64,000 nt of DNA from Coriobacteriia bacterium (GCA_009777935.1 WRKU01000004.1:3097-67096); one strand, 5' to 3'. Positions 9,846 to 46,231 are shown, counted from the first letter of the stretch. Numbers and translations: made by a program. Notes: generated by a model not told the origin, from the sequence alone.

Positions 9846-12072
9846 TCACCGACGCACCCAGAGGGCCGGACGAAGGCCGACGTCTGTCTGAGTAACGGAA
9901 TTGCCAGCCGGGTTGCCCCACACGCCGGTAGCACTGAGCTGACCCCACGAGCAGCGTATATCACCACTGCTGAGCACGTAGCCCGAATAGCCGCTCGTCT
10001 GACCCCGCGAGCGCATATGCCAAAAACGCGTAGTAGTCGATTCGGCGGTCTGATGATTGCCCCCGGCAGCTACCCCATAAGCGCGTGGGGCAAGCTGGGC
10101 ATCCGAGGTGATATTGGCTGTGCCCGTATTCGGGAAATAGCGCAATATCTCGGTACCGGAGAGCGAGAACGCTACGATACCTGTACCGGCGGTCGTGCTG
10201 GTGGTAGTAGTGCCGGCAAATACACCTGAAGGTCGTGACTGAGCCTGGGGGAAGCTCGTAAAGTTTACATTGGCCGGACTCAAAGCATTAAGAGGATTGA
10301 CATCGGTCTCAATGCCGAAGTTACGCGTGGTAACCACACCGGTAATGATGCCGTCTTCGTTACCAAAGTTTGCTTGGACGGCAAAGGCGTTTAGATCGGG
10401 ATAAAACATCGGTGTCATGTTATTCCACCACGTATCCATACCCTGTTGCATATTGGACACGTTGGTCGGTGCGCTGCCCGTACCCGTGTTTGCGAGCCAG
10501 AAATTGGCATTAGTCGTAGTAGCATTAAACCGCGGGCCGGTATCGGTTCCCGTAAAAGCAAGGTGAGGATCGGTGCGATAGATATGTTGCGTAACGATAA
10601 GGTCATAGGGCCCGTCTGAGGCGATGCGCCAGAAGGGAACGCCATCGATAAGAATACGTCGCGGAGAACCTATGGTAATGGGAGTCCCACCAATACCGGG
10701 AATCGTAACGGTAATCATATCGGACGCCGCGGTATGGTCGGTGCCTTCGACTGGTGCGCCGCCAGAGTTAGACACGAGGACCTGAAACTCAAAGGCGTTC
10801 GGGCGCGCAGTATTAACAGTATATTCAGTCTCATTGTTAGTCCCTGAAGCCGGACTCCACACGCCATTGATGCGTTGTTCCCATCGATAGGTCAAGTTGG
10901 GGTCGTCACCGGCATCTACCTTGAGAGTAACCAGTGTGTTGTAGGGTATCGTTATCGAGCGAACATCGTTGTCATTAATGGTCATGCCGAAGATTATCGG
11001 CGTGGGGTCCCAATTAATCGCATCGAGTATCTCTTTACCCTCGATGCTCGCCGCACGCAACGGCACACCATCGGTGCCAAAGGACGGCATGCCACCATCG
11101 CGCATCCTACTAAAATCATCGCGTGAGACGACTTCCATCTGAAGATCGATAGCGTAGTAGAAAGCTCCTTGCACGGGGTCAAAACCGGGCTGCGCCGAGA
11201 TAGTCGTCAGCAGCGGCAAACTCGTGTTGTTTGTATCACCGGGACGAATGACACTCGTATAGTAAAAGAACCCGTCATCGGCCAAGACCCACTTGTTAGA
11301 ACGCTGCGAAACAGGAGCTGCTGTCCACTGGGCATACGTCATTGCATGAGGCTGAGTCCAGTCCCAGTATTCGGCAAAAGGCATGCCGTCTGCGTCGTGT
11401 CCTCTGAGAGGGGCAGCTTGAGCAAGGCTTGTGAGGTTGGTGAGGCCGCGTATCGACCACATGTCATCGGTCACCGCAAACCAGGCCGTCTGGGTATCGA
11501 TTGCACTCCCAAAGGGTGCCTCAAGCGTGGCCGTCATCGTAGCTTCAGCGCTCGGAATAAGCGGCGCGAAGGTTGTAATATCGGAGATGATGTTGCGTCC
11601 ATCTGCCCACTCGGTACCATAGATGAACTGCATAAACTCGGCGGCCGAAATGCGCGCAATAAACGGTGTGATGCCAAGATTGTCGACACGTACAAGCTTG
11701 TCCCAAGTCCGCTCATCTTTGCGCGCAAACTCGTCGATAAGTACCGCTGCGGGAACAGTGTTGTTGGCAAACTGATTGAGACCGCGCTGAATTGCTCCCC
11801 ACGCAAAAGTACCGAGCAAAAGAAGAAGCATCACAATGATTGCTGCAATGAGAGTGTTTTGACGTTTGCGACTTTTGGGGGCGGTGCTTTCTGAGTCGTC
11901 AGTGCTGACCACCACGACAGTGGACGGATTGCTTGCGGTTTCGACTCCAGCTTCTTCGACGGCCTCCTTTACCGCTTCTTTGACGATTTCTTTAAGCGCA
12001 GGAGCATCGGAAGGGTTTAGTTCAGAAAGTGGGGACCCCCCCCCCCCGTGTGGTTTTCTCAGTTGTGCTCAT
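9846..12072 (-). CDS. Surface/secreted protein paralog 1, frameshifted at a G12 tract (ORF track shows 9846-11915)
   Basis: ATG 12072 with GAGGG RBS reads MSTTEKTTRGGG then hits TGA with G12; with G11 it joins the 689-aa ORF (741 aa). Basic RKRQ + hydrophobic helix + GTFAW, Ig-like middle, C-terminal W-x-x-RSRG...GLRPALWVRR. Confidence 0.85.
12036..12047 (-). repeat. Poly-G12 tract (C12 on + strand) in paralog 1
   Basis: Counted directly: ggga-cccccccccccc-gtg. Confidence 0.97.
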
Positions 12073-12247
12073 ATTGCCCTCATTTCATGCAAAAAACGCA
12101 TGTGTCGTTATGTTGACTACCGTTTTCAGTCTACCAAATTATGCTACCTTGACACAAGCACATTTCCTGCTTTCATTCTGTCGATTCCAACGCACTTTCT
12201 TCAACATAGGCAAACGCTACGCTTGCAGAATTTTATGGATACATTGC

Positions 12248-13315
12248 TCAGGCGATTCTTTCCTCGCGCAGAGCATCGTAATCAAGTTGAGTAGGCAAAA
12301 TACCGGTGAGTCGTTGTGCTGCTTCGCGTTCGAGCACGAGGTTGGTGCTGGCGATAGCGACCTCAACCATATCGATCGTGGGCTCGGCGGTGGTAAGACG
12401 TTGCATCTGTACGCCCGGCCACAGCATCACCTTCACGAGAGGGTTATCGGGACGTTTCCCCGCCCACTTGACCGTTACCTCGTAAGCAAGGCCCGCAACG
12501 AGCGGCAACAAGAGGATGCGTGAAGCCATGACGATGAGCGTCACCAGTACCGCATTCTCGATGCCAAGACTCATAACGGCTGCGCGTATCGGCACGAACG
12601 TGAATACGACGATAGAGATAACCGCCACCATCAAAAGAAATGACGTGCCGCATCGTACGTGCAGTCGCGGATAGTTCATGCAGTTTTCCGGGGTCAGCTC
12701 CGCGCCGTGTTCGACGGCACTGATAACCTTGTGCTCGGCACCGTGGTAGGCAAAGATACGCTTCATGTCGGGCATGAACCCGATGAGCCACACATACAAA
12801 AAGAACGCCACGAGACTCATAGCGCCATAGACGACGTTCCAGAGGAGTTGGCCGCGCGTGATGGGGCCGACGACGAGGTTGGTGAGCAGCGTCGGTGCGA
12901 CGACGAAGATACCGATAGCAAGCGCAAAGCCCGCAACGAGCGCAAACGCGGTCTCGCCGCGCCCCAGAGTCGGCTCTCCCCCACCGGTACTGCCGACGCC
13001 GGTGTCGATGCTCTCGTCGGCCTCATCGGTGCCGTCGCCTCCGCCTTCCATGCTGGCCATCTCGGCGCTAATCGTGAGTGCCTTGGTACCCAGCTTGAGC
13101 GAATCGACGAGAGCAACACAGCCGCGGACAACGGGCCACTTCATCCATGTCGGTCGGTCTTCGGCAGGCGTAAGATCGTGCTCCTGTGAATGGATAGTGC
13201 CCTGTATGTCACGTGCCGATACGGCCCAGCTGTATTTTCCGCGCATCATGACGCCTTCGATGACCGCTTGGCCCCCCAGATGGGTACAGGTTGGCTCCGC
13301 GTGCTCGTTATTCAC
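12248..13315 (-). CDS. DUF1385 (YqhQ-like) membrane protein
   Basis: GGQAVIEGVMM, YHGAEHK, HVRCGTSF, QRLTTAEP; start chosen at GTG 13315. Confidence 0.9.
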   Translation of the reverse strand: MNNEHAEPTCTHLGGQAVIEGVMMRGKYSWAVSARDIQGTIHSQEHDLTPAEDRPTWMKWPVVRGCVALVDSLKLGTKALTISAEMASMEGGGDGTDEADESIDTGVGSTGGGEPTLGRGETAFALVAGFALAIGIFVVAPTLLTNLVVGPITRGQLLWNVVYGAMSLVAFFLYVWLIGFMPDMKRIFAYHGAEHKVISAVEHGAELTPENCMNYPRLHVRCGTSFLLMVAVISIVVFTFVPIRAAVMSLGIENAVLVTLIVMASRILLLPLVAGLAYEVTVKWAGKRPDNPLVKVMLWPGVQMQRLTTAEPTIDMVEVAIASTNLVLEREAAQRLTGILPTQLDYDALREERIA

Positions 13316-18444: not shown

Positions 18445-20617
18445 TCACCGCCTCACCCAGAGGGCGGGGCGGATGCCGCGGCTCGTAAGGGTAACTGTGC
18501 CACCAGACGGTGAGGCCCACTCACCGCCGCCGAGCAGGTTGCCCCAAGAACCAGTCGCACGGCCACCAGCATCCACGATGCCCGCACGAACGGATGTGTT
18601 ACCACGCGAGCGTATCCACCAATCACGAGCTGTTCCCGGCGAGCCTGAATCGGCCGAATCATGCCCAATACGGCCCAGCTGCGTCGCACTCGTAGCACGC
18701 GCTGCCATACCGGACGTTCTCGCATCGTTGACGCCATCGGGAAAAAAGTTGACGACCTCAAGACCTGAGAGCGGAAATGCGATGATGCCGCCGGCATTGG
18801 CCGGGTTGGTGTCGGCCGCTGCGTTGTTTACGAGTGTTGTACTTGGACGCGATGCCGGACGGTCTCCATACGTTGCAAAGGTCGTATTTGCAAGCGTCCC
18901 GGTCACGATCGTACCGTCGGCATGCTCAATGCCCAGTGTAGCGGTCGTGTTGCCGTTGCCCCAGGCACCGGTGAAGGCAGGAGCGACTACCACATCGCGT
19001 AGCTCGCCGTTTAAGGGGGCGTTGTGGTTAAACCATGCGTCCATGTTGGCCATCAGATTAGATTTCGTGTTGTTAGGGCGATCGATGAGCCAGAATGCGT
19101 TGGTGTCCGACGTCGTGTTAACCATGTTGCTGTTTAGCGTATAAGGGGTGTCATGATAGACGTTTTCAGTCACGATTAAGTCATAGGTATAGGTGCCATC
19201 ATTGACACTGGCGATACGCCAAAACCATATGCCGTCAAACTGCATGTGTGCGTTAGCGGCTGTAGAGCCCAAGTGGCGTTGCGGGATGCCGCCCGTTGGT
19301 GCTTGGGGTCCCAGAGGTGAAGTGGGGCCGATAATCCTAATCTCACCCGAGATGCTTGTAAAGCCGTCACCTTCAACCGGTGCTGCACCGGAGTTTGAGA
19401 CGAGTGCACGGTAGGTGAAGGTTCCAGGCACACTCGTGCTGGCATAATAAGTGGCATTCGCATGAGACCCTGGTGCGGTCTCCCATTCATCGATGGTGTT
19501 CTTGCGCTGCCACAGATACGTGAGAGGCTGTATGCCGGTTGTATTGGCTTCGACGCCGAGCGCTGGAGTAGCGCTACCTAAGGTAACGGTTTTCTCGTTG
19601 CCAACAAGAGAGGTGGACTCGCCATTAATAGTAAGGTCAATAATGGAAGGAGCCGTCCACGTCATTGAGTCCAGAATGGCCCTACCCTGCGTTGATGCCG
19701 CACGCAAAGGTACGCCGTCGGTGCCGCTGCTGGGTACGAGGCCGTCTTTCATGGCACTCACATCATCTTGGGTGACGACCTCCATCTGGATGTCGATGGC
19801 GTAGTAGAAAGCGTGCTTGAGCGGATCAAAACCTGAAGCGGCGCTCACGCCGGTCATCAAGGGAAGCGTATTAGTCTCTGGTCTGATGACGCTTGTGTAG
19901 TAGAAAAAGCCATCATCAGCAAGTACCCACTTGTTTGAGCGCTGTGAGAGAGGTAGTGCGGTCCACTCGGTGTAGGTCAGGTGATCTGAGTTCCACTCCC
20001 AGTACTCGCTGAACGGAGTGCCGTCAGCAGCATGTCCTCGGGCAGGAGAAGCTTGCGTGAGGCTTGCTGGGTCAGTCAGACCGCGAATTGACCACATGTC
20101 AGGCGTGACGTTAAACCACGCTGTTTGAGTATCAATAAGGGTGCCATCTGCTCCCCACGTGCCTGAATCGAGCGTGGGAGTTAAGGTAGTCTCTATAGCT
20201 GCCGGAATAGGGTCGGCAAAAGGAACGCCTTCTATGATGTTTCGCCCACGGCTCCAGTCTTCAGCTTCTATCCACTGCATAAACTCAGATGCTGAGATAC
20301 GTGCTATGAAAGGTGAGTTGCCTGAGTTTTGTACCCATACTCTCTTTTGCCACTCAGTAGCATCAAGACGTCTGAATTCATCGTGCAGTACGGCTCTTGG
20401 TGTGTTTAGACTGGCAAACTGATTGATAGCACGCTGCATCGTACCCCACGCAAAGGCTCCTAAGAGTAGGAGGAGCAGGGCGATTATGATGGCTATGGTG
20501 GTGTTTTGACGCTTGCGACTGCGTGGTGCGTCGGTACCGGTAGCAGCGTCAATGGCAGAGGGCTCTACCTCAGAAAGTGGAGACCCCCCCCCCCCGCAGG
20601 GTGTGATTATCGCTCAT
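18445..20617 (-). CDS. Surface/secreted protein paralog 2, frameshifted at a G12 tract (ORF track shows 18445-20439)
   Basis: ATG 20617 with GAGGG RBS gives MSDNHTLRGGG then TGA with G12; with G11 it continues SPLSEVEP...RSRKRQNTTIAIIIALLLLLLGAFAWGTMQR into the ORF (723 aa). Confidence 0.85.
20584..20595 (-). repeat. Poly-G12 tract (C12 on + strand) in paralog 2
   Basis: Counted directly: aga-cccccccccccc-gcag. Confidence 0.97.
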
Positions 20618-20743: not shown

Positions 20744-21019
20744 CTAGAATAAATCGCTATGTGTGCCGGTACGCGTAAGCGTAAGTGTCAAGATATCCTC
20801 CTCAATGCGGTACACGAGCAGCCAATCAGGTTGGATGTGGCACTCTCGGTGATGTGCGTAATTCCCTATAAGAGCATGGTCTCGATGGACGGCATCGAGA
20901 GGTTTTCCTTGCGCAAGCTGCGTGATAATCTCATCAAGGAGTTCAATATGAAGGCCACGTTTTACTGCACGTTTATATTCTTTGCGAAATCTGCCGGTTA
21001 GCTTTACTTGATATTTCAT
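20744..21019 (-). CDS. yafQ: Type II TA toxin, YafQ family mRNA interferase
   Basis: DHALIGNY...RECHIQPDWLLVY...RTGTHSDLF; overlaps the antitoxin stop. Confidence 0.93.
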   Translation of the reverse strand: MKYQVKLTGRFRKEYKRAVKRGLHIELLDEIITQLAQGKPLDAVHRDHALIGNYAHHRECHIQPDWLLVYRIEEDILTLTLTRTGTHSDLF

Positions 21020-21291
21020 GCTTTTAAGTCTGCAAACATTTCGTCAAGATCAGTATACGCCTTAACATTCGGGTCATAAGTAATACGCTCGGCCTCTTCT
21101 ATGGCTGCAAGCGTTACCGCATTTGGCTTATTGCGGGAAACCTCGAACGGGATACCTTGCGTACGCACAGCCTGTCGCAAAAATATGGTAATCGCGCTTG
21201 TCGTGTTAAGGCCTAAATCTGCAAACAAATTCTCAGCTTCTCTCTTGAGATCTGGATCCATACGAATGCTCATGTTAGTGCTTGCACCCAT
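21016..21291 (-). CDS. dinJ: Type II TA antitoxin, RelB/DinJ family
   Basis: SIRMDPDLK...GLNTTSAITIFLRQAV...GIPFEV, directly upstream of yafQ. Confidence 0.92.
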   Translation of the reverse strand: MGASTNMSIRMDPDLKREAENLFADLGLNTTSAITIFLRQAVRTQGIPFEVSRNKPNAVTLAAIEEAERITYDPNVKAYTDLDEMFADLKA

Positions 21292-21603: not shown

Positions 21604-23753
21604 TCAACGCCTCACCCAGAGAGCGGGGCGGAGGCCGTAAGAGGTAGTAGTAATCGAAGCGCCACCGGGAACGTACCACGTGCCATTGTCGAGCACGCCA
21701 CCCCAGGAGCCGAACACATTGCCATCGGTGATCACGCGGCCCGCCGTATGGGCAGCCTCACCACGAGAGCGGGACCACCAAGCGCGCGCTGTCGTGGTGC
21801 CTGCGTGATTGGCTCCGGCTCCGCGGCCAATGCGGCCTAATGTGGAGTCAGTTGTGGTCGTTGCGACCCCACCGCCTCCCGTAGCAGTGTTCGGGAAATA
21901 GCGCAAGATTTCGGTACCGGAGAGTGCAAAGGTCACAATACCTTGACCAGCTGTGGTCGAGGTGGTGATAGCAGCTGCGGTGCGTACCGGATTCGAGGGA
22001 CGCGACTGTGCCTGCGGGAAGGTCGTGAAGTTCACGTTTGCAATGCTTCCGGCGTTATTCGTGGTAAGTCCTGTTTCAACGCCAAAGTTGCGTGTATCGA
22101 CTGCACCCGTAATGATGCCGGCACCCGTGCCAAAGTCAGCTTGGATGGCGTAGGCATTCAGGTCCGGATGGGTGGCAGGGGTCAGATTATTCCACCACGT
22201 GTCCATCGAGACTTGTAAGTTAGATACCGCACTCGGGGTCGACCCTGAGGCACTATTAGAAAGCCAGTAGTTGCCGTTGCCGCTTGCGTTAAACATAGGC
22301 CCGCCACTGCCGGTAAAGTTAACGGCTGGGTTGGTACCGTAGACGTATTGGGTCACGATTAGGTCATAGTAGCCATTTGAGGCAATGCGCCAAAACGGGA
22401 TGCCGTCGATAACGATGCGCTGGGGCGAGCCTATCACGATAGGATCGCCACCGATGCCAGGAAGTAGCTCTACTTCTACGGTAATCGTATCTGATGCGGT
22501 GGTGTGTCCGTCTCCCTCGACCGGCGCGTTGCCTGAGTTTGATACCAGCACCCTAAACTCGTAGGTGCCTACTACGCTGGTATCTACCGTGTATTCGGTC
22601 TCGTCGTTAGTACCTGGTGCATCACTCCAGGGTGAGTTGGTGGTTTGCCACAGGTAGGTCAGATCAGGGTCGCTACCAGCGTCAACTTCGAGGGTGACTG
22701 GCGTACCTGGCGCCACAGTTATCTCAAGACCTTCGATACCGTTGATGCTCAAGCCTCCGATAATCGGTGCAGTCCAGTTAATGCTATCAAGAATGGCCTT
22801 ACCCTGTGTGGATGCCGCACGGAGCGGTACGCCATCGGTGCCACTGCTGGGGACAAGGCCATCTTTCATGGCACTCACATCATCTTGCGTGACGACCTCC
22901 ATTTGGATATCGATGGCATAGTAGAAGGCATGCTTGAGTGGATCAAATCCCGTGGCGGCAGAGACTCCTGTCATGAGGGGAAGCGTATTGTTGTCTGGTC
23001 TGATGACGCTTGTGTAGTAGAAAAAGCCATCGTCAGCGAGCACCCACTTGTTAGCACGTTGCGCTAGGGGAAGTGCTGTCCATTCGGTGTAGGTCAGGTG
23101 ATCTGAGTCCCAGTCCCAATACTGGCTGAAAGGCATGCCGTCAGCTGCGTGTCCTCTGGCAGGAGCTGCATTCGTGATACTCGTTGGGTCAGTAAGGCCA
23201 CGAATCGACCACATGTCAGAGGTGACGTTAAACCAGGCTGTTTGCGTATCGATGAGAGTGCCGTCTACGCCCCAGGTGCCTGAGTCAAGCGTGGGAGTTA
23301 AGTTAGTTTCGATAGCTTCAGGTATGGGAGGAGCAAAAGGAATGCCTTCTATGATGTTTCTGCCACGCGTCCAATCTTCAGCCTCGATCCACTGCATAAA
23401 CTCAGATGCTGAGATGCGTGCAATAAAGGGTGAGTTGCCTGAGTTTTGTACCCATACTCTCTTTTGCCACTCGGCTGCATCAAGACGCCTGAATTCATCG
23501 TGAAGTACGGCACGTGGTGTGTTCAGGCTCGCAAACTGATTGATAGCGCGCTGCATCGTACCCCATGCAAAGGCTCCCAGCAGGAGGAGCAGGAGTGCAA
23601 CTATGATAGCTATGGTGGTGTTTTGACGCTTGCGACTTTTTGGTGCCGCGTTAGAAGTGTCCGCGCTACTGACAGCGCTCGTAGACGAGGGCTCTACGCT
23701 ATTTTGCGATGGCCCCCCCCCCCCAGCAAGCGTAAAAAGGGCTGTTCAAACAC
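21604..23753 (-). CDS. Surface/secreted protein paralog 3, interrupted at a G12 tract; start uncertain (ORF track shows 21604-23556)
   Basis: The ORF frame extends upstream through KSRKRQNTTIAIIVALLLLLLGAFAWGT to the G12 tract, but has TGA at 23748 and no in-frame start. TTG 23749 needs G11; GTG 23753 needs G13 or G10. Confidence 0.78.
23713..23724 (-). repeat. Poly-G12 tract (C12 on + strand) in paralog 3
   Basis: Counted directly: gg-cccccccccccc-agc. Confidence 0.97.
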
Positions 23754-23774
23754 CGTTACTGCGTACAGAAAGGG

Positions 23775-25052
23775 TCAGTGTCCGGCGGTATCGCGGGGGG
23801 TGGGGCGATAGAACTTCGTGTCTTTGAGAGCATCGGGCAGGTACTGTTGCTCGACGTAACCTTCTGCGTAGCTATGGGGATAAAGGTAGCGGCCGTAGTT
23901 TTCGCTGCCGGGACGATTGCGGTCACGCAGATGGCTCGGTACGTCGTACTCGGCACCAGCACGCACGGCGGCCAGCGCTTCGTCGATGGCGAGATACGAC
24001 GCATTGGACTTGGGTGCGCGCGCGAGGTAGATTGCAGCTTGCGACAGGATGATACGGCACTCGGGCATGCCGATAATCTCGGCCGAGCGAAACGCAGCCT
24101 CGGCGATAAGCAGTGCCTGTGGGTCAGCCATGCCGATGTCCTCAGAGGCCAGTATCATCATGCGGCGTGCGATAAACTTCGGGTCCTCTCCCCCGTGCAA
24201 CATGCGCGCGAGCCAGTAGACCGACGCATCCGGATCAGAGCCGCGCATCGATTTGATGAATGCGCTGATGATGTCGTAGTGATAGTCGCCGTCTTTGTCG
24301 TACGGTGTTTGCTTGGACGGCATTGCGTCGGCAACCATCTCAAGCGTCAGCTCGCGCGCTTCCTGTGCCATCGCAAGCTGAGCAGCGAGCTCGAGCGTAG
24401 TCAAGGCGACGCGCGCGTCACCGCCGGCCATCGCGGCGATGGCTGTGACGACTTCGTCGGTCGCGCTGAGCTGCCCGTTGAGGCCTCGCTCATCGGCCAG
24501 TGCGGTGCGCACAATAGTGGCGACATCTTCGTCGGTAAGGAGCGCCAGCTCGATAACGCGCGAACGCGATACCAGCGCACTGTTGACCTCAAAGTAGGGG
24601 TTTTCGGTCGTCGCACCGATAAGTACGACGATGCGATCTTCAACGGCGTGAAGAAGCGCGTCTTGCTGAGACTTCGAGAAACGATGAATCTCGTCGATGA
24701 AGAGAATGGTGCGCCGCCCTTCAAGGGCGAGCCGCTCGCGTGCCGCAGTCAGCGAAGCGCGCAGATCGGCGACGGTGCCGCCGATGGCCGAGACCTCATC
24801 AAAAAACGACTCGGTCGTCGCGGCGATGATGCGCGCAAGCGTCGTCTTGCCGGTGCCGGCCGGCCCAAAGAGCAGAATTGAAGAGAGCGCATCGGCTGCG
24901 ATTACGCGACGAAGCCAGGTGCCCTCGCCCACGATGGTGCTCTGTCCCACGAACTCGTCGAGCGTGCGCGGGCGCATACGCACCGCAAGCGGCGCGACGG
25001 CCTCAACGGCACGTGCGCGAACATCGGCGAAAAGATCGGGCTGTTTTGGCAT
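23775..25052 (-). CDS. rarA: Replication-associated recombination protein A (RarA/MgsA)
   Basis: PLAVRMRP, GPAGTGKTT, FIDEIHRF, GATTENPYF, SAFIKSMRGSDPDA, ASEDIG. Confidence 0.97.
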   Translation of the reverse strand: MPKQPDLFADVRARAVEAVAPLAVRMRPRTLDEFVGQSTIVGEGTWLRRVIAADALSSILLFGPAGTGKTTLARIIAATTESFFDEVSAIGGTVADLRASLTAARERLALEGRRTILFIDEIHRFSKSQQDALLHAVEDRIVVLIGATTENPYFEVNSALVSRSRVIELALLTDEDVATIVRTALADERGLNGQLSATDEVVTAIAAMAGGDARVALTTLELAAQLAMAQEARELTLEMVADAMPSKQTPYDKDGDYHYDIISAFIKSMRGSDPDASVYWLARMLHGGEDPKFIARRMMILASEDIGMADPQALLIAEAAFRSAEIIGMPECRIILSQAAIYLARAPKSNASYLAIDEALAAVRAGAEYDVPSHLRDRNRPGSENYGRYLYPHSYAEGYVEQQYLPDALKDTKFYRPTPRDTAGH

Positions 25053-34960: not shown

Positions 34961-36262
34961 TTAGCTTGCCTCGAGTACGGAAAGGAACTCCTCGTAGGCA
35001 ACGAATCGCTCCTCTTTGCTCTGCATGTCACGCAGCGTCACGCCGCCGCGCTCATCTTCATCGGGTGCCAGTATCGCAACGAAGTACGCGCCGGCTTTAT
35101 CGGCCGCCTTCATCTGGCTTTTGAGCGAACGGCCAGCAAGGTCAATCTGTACGTACCAGCCTTCATCGCGCACCTGTGTGGCGAAGTCAAAGGCGCGCGC
35201 GCGTAAACCGTCGCCTGCATCGGTGCTCGCGCACGCGACGTAGAGATCACACTCCCCTGCTGCGGCAAGCTCGGCACCTTGTGCCTCGAGCACAAGCAGT
35301 ACGCGTTCGAACCCGATGGCAAAGCCGATGCCGGGGGTGGACTTGCCGCCCAACGCCTCGGCCAGCCCATCGTAGCGCCCACCGCCGCCGAGCGCGTTTT
35401 GGGACGCGCCCAGGCCGGTGTCGGCCACGACCTCAAAGACGGTACGTGTGTAGTAGTCGAGTCCGCGCACGAGCGTGTCGTCTTGCTCCCACGTAATCTG
35501 CACGAGGTCGAGGAGCTCCTTGACCTGCGCATCATGCACGGCACACGCCTCGCAGAGGCTCTCGGAAAGCCGTGGCGCACCCGCGGCCGCAAAGACCGTG
35601 CGACAGGCAGGGTTCTTGCAGTCGAGCGCACGCAGCGGGTTCGTGTCAGCACGCTCCACGCACCGCTCACACAGCTCACCGGCGTGCGCACGGATAAACG
35701 CTTCAACAGCGTCACGATACGCGGGGCGGCACGCCGCACAGCCCATCGAGTTGATGAGCAGCCGCATGCTCTCGCGCGTAATACCAATCTCAGGAAAGTA
35801 CGCCATGAGCATGGCGATTATCTCGGCATCGGCCTCCGGCGTGTCAAATCCGAGTGCCTCGGCACCAATCTGGTAGAACTGACGCTGACGCCCCTTCTGT
35901 GGACGCTCGTAGCGAAATTGCGGGCCTGCGTAGTAGAGCTTCACGCCCCCGCCTTGTGCGATAGAACCAGCAACGCCTGCATTAATCGCCGCACGCACAA
36001 CGCCGGCGGTGTTCTCGGGACGCAACGTTATCTCGCGCTCGCCACGATCCTCAAAGGTATACATCTCTTTGCCGACGACATCGGTCGCCTCGCCCAATCC
36101 GCGCGTGAAGACCTCGGTTGCCTCGAATATCGGCGTATAGATAGGCTCGTAGCCGTAGCGCCCAAAAACCTCACGCGCCACGTTTGTACAAAACTCCCAC
36201 GCACGCGCCGTCACACCGATTAAATCGGTCGTTCCTTTCGGGGCGGTGTAGGTGTTAGCCAT
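34961..36262 (-). CDS. hisS: Histidine--tRNA ligase
   Basis: LRPENTA, FRYERPQKGRQRQF, LVRGLDYYTRT, GGGRYDGL. Confidence 0.98.
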   Translation of the reverse strand: MANTYTAPKGTTDLIGVTARAWEFCTNVAREVFGRYGYEPIYTPIFEATEVFTRGLGEATDVVGKEMYTFEDRGEREITLRPENTAGVVRAAINAGVAGSIAQGGGVKLYYAGPQFRYERPQKGRQRQFYQIGAEALGFDTPEADAEIIAMLMAYFPEIGITRESMRLLINSMGCAACRPAYRDAVEAFIRAHAGELCERCVERADTNPLRALDCKNPACRTVFAAAGAPRLSESLCEACAVHDAQVKELLDLVQITWEQDDTLVRGLDYYTRTVFEVVADTGLGASQNALGGGGRYDGLAEALGGKSTPGIGFAIGFERVLLVLEAQGAELAAAGECDLYVACASTDAGDGLRARAFDFATQVRDEGWYVQIDLAGRSLKSQMKAADKAGAYFVAILAPDEDERGGVTLRDMQSKEERFVAYEEFLSVLEAS

Positions 36263-45692: not shown

Positions 45693-46231
45693 AGCAACTC
45701 CCTTCGATAATATAGCACCTGCGTCCTTACCGCTTTCCTCATTATAGCATATTTATGCTACTTTCCAAACCTCTACTTGCCAAACCTGTCCGGAGCGACA
45801 TTTCGACCACATTCGGTTCAGCACATGCACAGGCCCGAGCGGTGCTGGTGTGCAACCACCCGAGCCCGTGCGTTTCCCTTTTTCGCCAACGCCCTATACG
45901 AACGCTACGCGAAAGGAGATGAGTTCCCTTACCTGCTCTCTGTATGCCGCTTAGCATACACTCCCTGGCATAGCCCACTTCACACGGAAGGGTCATGCGG
46001 GTAAGTCTGGACGCACGCCACGCGCCTCGGTGGCAGCAATGTCGCCCGCCACGGTCCCCCAGCTGTCCACGCGAGCCGCCGTAGTGGCAGAGTTGCCCGG
46101 AGACCGCAGCCACTGGTTCTGCCAGAAAGCGGCGGAACGCTATTCGTCCGCGTGCATCGTAACTCATTCCTACGACTGCGCCACTTGCCCTACAGTCGCA
46201 CCGCTAGTGTAACAGACTTACTACGGTGCCT

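Follow-up and report, generated by a model that had tools for sequence, protein, structure and literature searches.

Does the run of 12 guanines near the 5' end of a long gene in an uncultured Coriobacteriia bacterium mark a decayed gene, a sequencing error, or a switch? The gene, here called paralog 1, lies on the minus strand at positions 9846 to 12072 of the window, i.e., the whole stretch of 64,000 nucleotides (nt) that was analyzed (GCA_009777935.1, WRKU01000004.1:3097-67096). The window corresponds to C4:3097-67096 of the source assembly G000 (1.107 Mb in 21 contigs, 55.7% G+C, estimated to be 86% complete), and positions on its contigs are cited in the same form. An earlier note, made from this DNA alone, had described a gene that is frameshifted by G12 and restored by the loss of one G. 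We consider it probable (about 0.8) that the tract is a phase-variation switch operating by slipped-strand mispairing (a contingency locus), in which G12 is the OFF length and G11 is the ON length.

On the minus strand, a GAGGG motif is followed after 4 nt by ATG 12072-12070, by AGC ACA ACT GAG AAA ACC ACA C, and by G12, directly 3' of which the sequence is TCC CCA CTT TCT GAA CTA (TCCCCACTTTCTGAACTAAACCC). The tract occupies codons 9 to 12, in the 5' part of the frame, behind a conserved ribosome-binding site (RBS) and ATG (Table 1). In the G12 state, the frame of ATG 12072 is closed by TGA 12024-12022 (16 codons in all). In the G11 state, the same ATG opens a single frame of 741 codons (MSTTEKTTRGGGSPLSELNPSDAPALKEIVKEAVKEAVEEAG...) that ends at a stop at 9846. 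The layout given in the earlier note, with its RBS, ATG, and early TGA, was read again on the minus strand, and its arithmetic also held: the span is 2,227 nt, or 3 x 742 + 1, and removal of one G restores the frame. G11 leads to the full product, and G12 and G13 lead to a stop at codon 4 or 6 past the tract. The 729 codons past the tract are open, with no second lesion. Three G12 runs were found in the window, and none were found in 100 dinucleotide-preserving shuffles of it.

Sequence comparisons support the ATG before the tract as the start codon and G11 as the ON length. The RBS, leader, and tract layout of paralog 1 recur, with G11, at two sister loci that independent gene finders called full length from the leader ATG. 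One is at C18:2407 (774 amino acids [aa]; identical in the ENA contig L044), and the other is in contig L002 (614 aa, MAVDKTLRGGGSPLFEVEPP...). The relative P0019 (849 aa), which has no tract, aligns with paralog 1 from the first post-tract residue (E value, 2e-62; SPLSELNPSDAPALKEIVKEAVKEAVEEA versus SPIEEVS-SDAAALKEVIKEAVKEATDEA) and on through KSRKRQNTLIAA and the hydrophobic segment, so the stretch of 40 codons that separates GTG 11915 from the tract is coding. No in-frame ATG, GTG, or TTG lies between the tract and the membrane segment in 9 to 10 of the 13 complete paralogs. GTG 11915, a possible start that the earlier note had already found to be without an RBS, was ruled out as the true start by the alignment upstream of it, by the lack of a Shine-Dalgarno-like motif, and by this start-free stretch in the paralogs. 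Gene calls for paralog 1 in the ENA contig and in the protein database begin at internal starts (689 or 662 aa). A putative promoter was aligned with the conserved upstream regions of sister loci (TTGCYG...TGCTACACT / TGGTAGACT); a consensus promoter scan did not call these conserved boxes of paralog 1.

Paralog 1 is one member of a set of paralogs, as the earlier note had proposed. Lengths of G/C runs in the whole genome are bimodal, with 108, 12, 4, 2, 2, 3, 16, and 8 runs of 6, 7, 8, 9, 10, 11, 12, and 13 bases, respectively, and 2, 2, 1, 1, and 1 runs of 14, 15, 16, 18, and 29 bases. About 25 of the approximately 36 runs of at least 11 bases in 1.1 Mb belong to 5' modules of this paralog family. 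The module consists of GAAATGAGGGC, 2 to 5 nt, ATG, a leader of 7 or 8 codons (one of three), and a G10-14 tract; after the tract come a short conserved sequence, of which there are a few kinds, and a long open frame with a hydrophobic segment. The leader class of paralog 1 (ATGAGCACAAYTGAGAAAACCACAC) was found at eight or more other loci. By tblastn, the protein family forms 26 blocks that occupy 47 kb, or 4.3% of the assembly; a search for related loci with a single protein as the query against the genome contigs gave no match.

In all 13 complete loci, the frame past the tract is open (599 to 846 codons), with no other lesion. Moreover, stops close both wrong frames at codons 4 and 6 past the tract in every one of the 13, in five variants of a stop-NN-stop octamer (TGAACTAA, TGAGGTAG, TGAGTTAA, TAGCGTAG, and TAAGGTAG). 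As a background, only 5.6% of the positions in these open reading frames (ORFs) close both wrong frames within 7 codons, and the trap suggests selection for clean OFF states. These data bear on the possibility that paralog 1 is a decaying pseudogene, i.e., a redundant copy with a frameshift and no switching. It is out of frame as assembled, and the family does include a decayed copy, paralog 3, from which promoter and start are gone. However, a decaying gene would not be expected to be free of other lesions in 729 codons, as paralog 1 and all of the complete loci are, nor to be interrupted always at the same site with leader, RBS, and stop trap conserved. We regard decay as very improbable.

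Tract lengths are not uniform among the 13 complete loci: G12 was found in 10, and G13, G10, and G11 (ON) were found in one each. At the G13 locus, a T beside the tract has become G, and hence its frame state equals that of G12. Eleven loci are therefore exactly one G over the in-frame length, one is one G under it, and one is ON. Further loci with clean interior tracts in ENA and JGI contigs, from the same or a very close population, had G12 (five loci), G13 (one locus), and G11 (one locus).

Comparisons between assemblies point in the same direction at sister loci. The ENA contig L042 differs from window positions 35052 to 23554 (11.5 kb) by one mismatch and one gap, and the gap is the tract of paralog 3 (G11 versus G12). 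At the C21 locus, G12 at a garbled G000 contig end is matched by G11 inside L002 (99.84% identical over 10 kb). These length differences are suggestive rather than conclusive because the assemblies may rest on overlapping reads. Contigs of JGI 3300002469 are 100% identical to G000, and one of them ends exactly at a tract. Look-ups of two neighbors, ThyX and a C17 ATPase, gave no record.

Long G runs are poorly read by Illumina sequencing, and a true length of G11, with the gene intact, would make G12 an artefact of sequencing or assembly. Many contigs do break at tracts, with garbled G-rich sequence beyond, and this pattern matches the "G's end" artefact of Illumina data that was reported at G tracts of Bifidobacterium (PMC9187656); the garbled G000 end at the C21 locus, which says G12 where the interior of the ENA contig says G11, fits as well. 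However, interior loci of these very assemblies differ in their calls (G10, G11, G12, and G13), and a uniform error of +1 would frameshift both of the in-frame G11 genes that were called full length. Paralog 1 itself lies in a contig interior with clean flanks in two assemblies. The technical error measured at a G11 control was at most approximately 6% and consisted mostly of deletions, not additions (PMC9187656). We regard an artefact as very improbable. A separate trace of the contig breaks was seen in ENA ERZ27257348, where positions 1 to 10 of k141_3347604 (L046) are CTTCCGATCT, an Illumina adapter end, fused to a family leader before the tract. This contig start is adapter read-through kept in the assembly at a tract-induced break.

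Several observations weigh against a phase-variation switch. With 11 of 13 loci at the ON length plus one, the probability of finding no more than one ON locus is 0.039 under equal thirds, for loci that are not independent because their 5' modules are near-identical and mosaic. This excess is not predicted by pure random switching and would call for a mutational attractor at length 12, selection that favors silence, gene conversion among the 5' modules, or another mechanism. At paralog 1, both assemblies have G12, and no length variation was seen (ENA contig L040 versus window positions 19975 to 7027, 99.915% identity, 11 mismatches, 0 gaps). The assemblies G000, JGI 3300002469, Ga0099364, and ENA ERZ27257348 share stretches that are 99.9 to 100% identical and are not fully independent. 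Finally, the AlphaFold model of the protein is poor (predicted local distance difference test score, 57.5), with an Ig/PKD-like domain as the sole confidently modeled part.

The excess of G12 could also mean that G12 is the functional, maintained state, with full-length protein made at a low set level through slippage of RNA polymerase on the G run (mRNAs with 11 G) or +1 ribosomal slippage of tRNA-Gly on GGG-G; the tract would then be an attenuator of expression and not a DNA switch. Most of the additional ENA and JGI loci, like the complete ones, are one G over the frame, the G12 of paralog 1 is reproduced in a second assembly, and, judging from the sequence, Gly-tRNA would re-pair perfectly in the +1 frame on a G run. 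The out-of-frame length is not fixed, however: the tract at C18:2407 is in frame in two assemblies, L002 is also in frame, and G10 and G13 occur. Tract lengths differ between assemblies at sister loci, an analogous family in the relative G010 (see below) mixes ON and OFF lengths, and the conserved double stop trap fits true OFF states. No hairpin, terminator, or Rfam element was found by the tract, and no dedicated search for weaker stimulators was made; Rfam gave no match around any of the three paralogs in the window. Productive transcriptional slippage in bacteria is documented mainly at A/T runs, which also counts against this explanation. Together, we judge programmed slippage to be improbable. 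An attenuator formed by a leader ORF, of the Streptococcus gallolyticus pil type, was rejected, with 0 terminator-like sites in positions 11850 to 12350 and a main frame that starts at the tract.

Under the phase-variation switch that we favor, translation would begin at ATG 12072 behind the conserved RBS. With G11 (or 8 or 14 Gs), the ribosome would read R-G-G-G and continue into a cytoplasmic tail, a membrane or signal segment, and an ectodomain of approximately 650 aa (ON); this in-frame product would contain junction peptides such as GGGSPLSELNPSDAPALK. With G12 or G13, the ribosome would meet a stop 4 or 6 codons past the tract (OFF). One G gained or lost at replication would toggle the gene heritably and reversibly, and the assembled (modal) state of paralog 1 would be OFF, a single deletion from ON. 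We infer replication slippage as the cause, together with the reversibility and the rate of switching and the expression of the gene, from these features of the locus. Because approximately 25 paralogs carry the module, each cell would show a small, changing subset of the family. Slips in the tract would also meet no detected system for their correction. MutS (MutS_V, PF00488) and NucS (NucS_C, PF01939) were found neither in G000 nor in 15 genomes of the same class, complete ones included, in searches with positive controls. The incompleteness of G000 matters less for this result because the complete relatives lack both proteins too, and since neither protein was detected, no known mismatch repair would clear slippage intermediates.

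The encoded protein continues past the tract with an acidic or helical tail of 20 to 60 aa, RKRQ, a hydrophobic segment of 19 residues, an N-domain, the Ig/PKD-like domain, and a C-terminal domain ending in GLRPALWVRR. The tail ...G(L/V)RPALWV is common to all family members. Similarity of the N-domain to BsaA/TasA-type SipW-dependent matrix proteins (TIGR04090) is weak and below the cutoff (21 to 31 bits versus 60; E values, 2e-4 to 2e-7), yet it is present in every family member scanned. A gene for a SipW-type (archaeal-type) signal peptidase lies at C8:46066-46530 (TIGR02228, 78.5 bits; cutoff, 51.85). DUF6273 (PF19789), a C-type-lectin-like receptor-binding domain in phage targets of diversity-generating retroelements (DGRs) (PMC10743442), was matched in 6 of 20 family members (best E value, 2.6e-8), and paralog 1 itself was without a match. 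A Pfam search with the whole of paralog 1 and with pieces of it gave nothing beyond a sub-threshold PKD match, Foldseek returned generic Ig/PKD matches only, and the N-domain relatives from a full hidden Markov model search likewise had no Pfam family. The full architecture is confined to this lineage, and the component domains are widespread; in 61 relatives, the family was absent apart from weak N-domain matches in one genome (G009). A variable adhesin or ligand-binding protein at the cell surface would be the most likely role.

The contig with the peptidase gene also carries three family members. Those at C8:27118-29709 and C8:39956-42366 are divergent and without a tract hit; they may represent an ancestral part of the system that lacks the switch.

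Table 1. Positions of the features of paralog 1, of the tracts of paralogs 2 and 3, and of the copies of a dispersed element (window positions unless a G000 contig is named)
Feature	Position	Strand	Basis
Putative promoter of paralog 1: TTGTGT, 18 nt, TAGACT, TG upstream	12128..12157	-	Sister-locus alignment only
RBS GAGGG, 4 nt 5' of ATG	12077..12081	-	Read in sequence; block conserved across family
Start codon and 8-codon leader (MSTTEKTT and C of Arg codon)	12048..12072	-	Sequence, frame translation
G12 homopolymer, proposed switch; R-G-G-G when in frame (G11)	12036..12047	-	Sequence; G12 also in ENA L040
Double stop trap TGAACTAA: TGA ends G12 frame, TAA ends third frame	12017..12024	-	Sequence
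Main frame past tract, 729 codons and stop	9846..12035	-	Translation, domain searches
Hydrophobic segment LIAAIIVMLLLLLGTFAWG, putative signal anchor or SipW-type signal peptide	11796..11855	-	Best Kyte-Doolittle window
G12 tract of paralog 2 (ATG 20617), in the OFF state in the assembly; with G11, the frame would run 723 aa to 18445	20584..20595	-	
G12 tract of paralog 3, a copy without promoter, RBS, and ATG (frame to 21604)	23713..23724	-	
Dispersed element, copies in G000	C6:2538, C6:5183, C6:37774, C7:52806/53858/55021/55955, C9:47887		Sequence match
Dispersed element, further copies in G000	C11:46328, C14:2687, C17:1510, C10:1-126		Sequence match

Some family members have a second class of tract (G9-13), which precedes a conserved promoter (TTGCGC, 17 nt, TATACT) by approximately 20 nt. 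This promoter-type tract is approximately 128 nt 5' of the coding tract, so such genes carry two tracts, one of which is possibly transcriptional and the other translational. Sites of the promoter-type tract, all outside the window, are C9:48280-48289, C9:50703-50711, C4:218-230, C9:109-121, C19:62-74, and C20:14096-14108. Within the window, paralog 2 has the layout of paralog 1, with its stop-NN-stop trap at 20565 to 20572. The tract of paralog 3 (flanks, 23680 to 23780) joins a promoter-type left flank (..CAGCCCTTTTTACGCTTGCT) to a coding-type right flank (CCATCGCAAAATAGCGTAGAGCC). It looks as if a canonical locus (e.g., C9:48280-48419) had lost the approximately 128 bp that separate its two G tracts, and paralog 3 may be a silent cassette. 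This layout is not an artefact of the G000 assembly because L042 has the same layout (with G11).

Among documented systems, the G-tract switch of Bifidobacterium breve pilin genes is the nearest in both phylum and type of tract. In B. breve UCC2003, G10-12 tracts were shown to switch the sortase-dependent pilin genes bbr_0113 and bbr_1889, and an out-of-frame length was in the majority in culture (G12, 59%; G11, 37%) (PMC9187656). Both systems belong to Actinomycetota of the gut commensal type, both have a G10-12 tract that sets translation near the 5' end of a gene for a surface structure, and both show the "G's end" artefact. In B. breve, the tract stands between a signal-peptide ORF and the LPXTG pilin body, and each genome has two such loci; in the present family, the tract comes before the hydrophobic segment, the LPXTG motif is absent from paralogs 1 to 3, and there are approximately 25 paralogs, some with a second tract upstream of the promoter. 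Paralog 1 works like the pilin switch but is neither a member of that group nor a pilin.

Campylobacter jejuni has roughly 18 tracts per Mb, compared with approximately 33 per Mb here. The poly-G/C genes of C. jejuni, Helicobacter, and Neisseria meningitidis (PMC8355987, PMC5084427, and PMC2823697) share with the present system the many tracts in a small genome, their place mostly in surface-related genes, the setting of ON and OFF by frameshift, and the bimodal run lengths. Their tracts are usually G8-G11 and lie in unrelated genes (glycosyltransferases, methylases, and receptors), whereas those described here are G11-13, are almost wholly in one paralog family, and belong to a 5' module that has been copied and in which the double stop trap is fixed. 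In Neisseria, 11 to 12 opa paralogs are each switched by CTCTT repeats in the region coding for the signal peptide. Opa is the best match in logic, being a multigene family of surface adhesins with independent leader-repeat switches, few of them ON, and recombination between copies; it differs in its pentamer repeat, in its Gram-negative pathogen host, and in its outer-membrane beta-barrel fold. Promoter-linked homopolymer switches include the poly-G of Treponema pallidum tpr, the poly-C of Bordetella fim, and the poly-A of Mycoplasma vlp. Several family loci resemble these in having G9-13 approximately 20 nt 5' of the -35 box, as does G009 with G11-12 approximately 300 nt upstream of its genes, but paralog 1 has no second tract. 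Among Actinomycetota, adaptive frameshifting homopolymers are also described for the Mycobacterium tuberculosis complex, where the tracts are 7 to 9 nt long, lie in metabolic and regulatory genes, and form no paralog family (PMC10334774). A literature search found no paper that links Coriobacteriia with homopolymer phase variation and no description of such a switch in this protein family.

The source is placed in the Coriobacteriia because the nearest named relatives of its Rho protein are from Adlercreutzia, Coriobacteriaceae, and Collinsella (63 to 71%). The nearest family-level relatives have no long G runs, but several order-level ones have many. One of the latter, G010 (contigs L022 to L027), has an unrelated family of signal-peptide paralogs with an RBS, ATG, 8 codons, G12-14, and a signal peptide; ON and OFF tract lengths are mixed, and the tracts are followed by a similar stop-NN-stop motif (TAGGCTAA and TAAGCTAG). 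In G009 (L016, L018, and L019), the N-domain homologs have a typical SipW-type signal (LLLGGAFAWTDF), and their upstream tracts stand in the conserved context GCAAAAATGTA-Gn-CTC.

Contingency loci are textbook knowledge for a handful of pathogens; here, they would take up more than 4% of a reduced genome in an uncultured, commensal-type member of the Coriobacteriia. The main domain of the switched family has no Pfam model, and the unrelated family of the order-level relative uses a like design. The distribution points to stochastic variation of the surface as a trait of the general lifestyle of the lineage, e.g., against phages, the host, or competitors for attachment sites. The locus gains interest from the size of the family, the mode at ON plus one, the paired stops of the trap, and the additional tracts linked to promoters. 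Because gene callers truncate or miss such genes and assemblies break at the tracts, the surface repertoires of such metagenome-assembled genomes are systematically underannotated.

A dispersed element of approximately 400 nt is present in at least 13 copies, one of them in the window (45962 to 46169, minus strand) and four immediately 3' of paralogs of the family. The core of the element resembles the template/variable repeat of a DGR for a lectin tail, without a conserved reading frame, and Rfam gave no match for it. The copy at C10:1-126, at a contig end, is a real gene end (..GVRPALWVR*). Also outside the window, C10:2392-4031 holds a reverse transcriptase gene (PF00078, 43.8 bits) and, immediately before it, an ORF that weakly matches the DGR accessory protein Avd (E value, 0.0055; below the cutoff). 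This pair lies 2.3 kb from the variable-repeat-like gene end and may be a DGR. We also considered the paralog tails as DGR targets of the template-repeat-like elements, which was unsupported: the 3' ends of the paralogs are only approximately 60 to 65% similar to the nearby element. Of the 12 mismatches that separate C10:1-126 from the copy nearest to it, 5 are at A, so the mismatches are not adenine specific.

The leader, untranslated-region, and body classes of the family are mosaic, and a layered system of variation, in place of a set of independent switches, can be drawn from these parts. Length 12 may be a mutational attractor, one step over ON, that keeps approximately 25 paralogs silent, each one deletion away from expression. 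The G tracts may be recombination joints, with paralog 3 as a promoter-type tract fused to a coding tract in a silent cassette. The template-repeat-like elements, of which there are 13 or more, may act together with the C10 pair to diversify the lectin-like tails. That all three layers act jointly seems unlikely.

Toxin-antitoxin genes accompany several family members. Window positions 20744 to 21291 (minus strand), between paralogs 2 and 3, encode the toxin YafQ (116.5 bits) together with the antitoxin RelB (51.2 bits), and Phd/ParE and RelB/ParE pairs flank family members in contigs L001 and L003.

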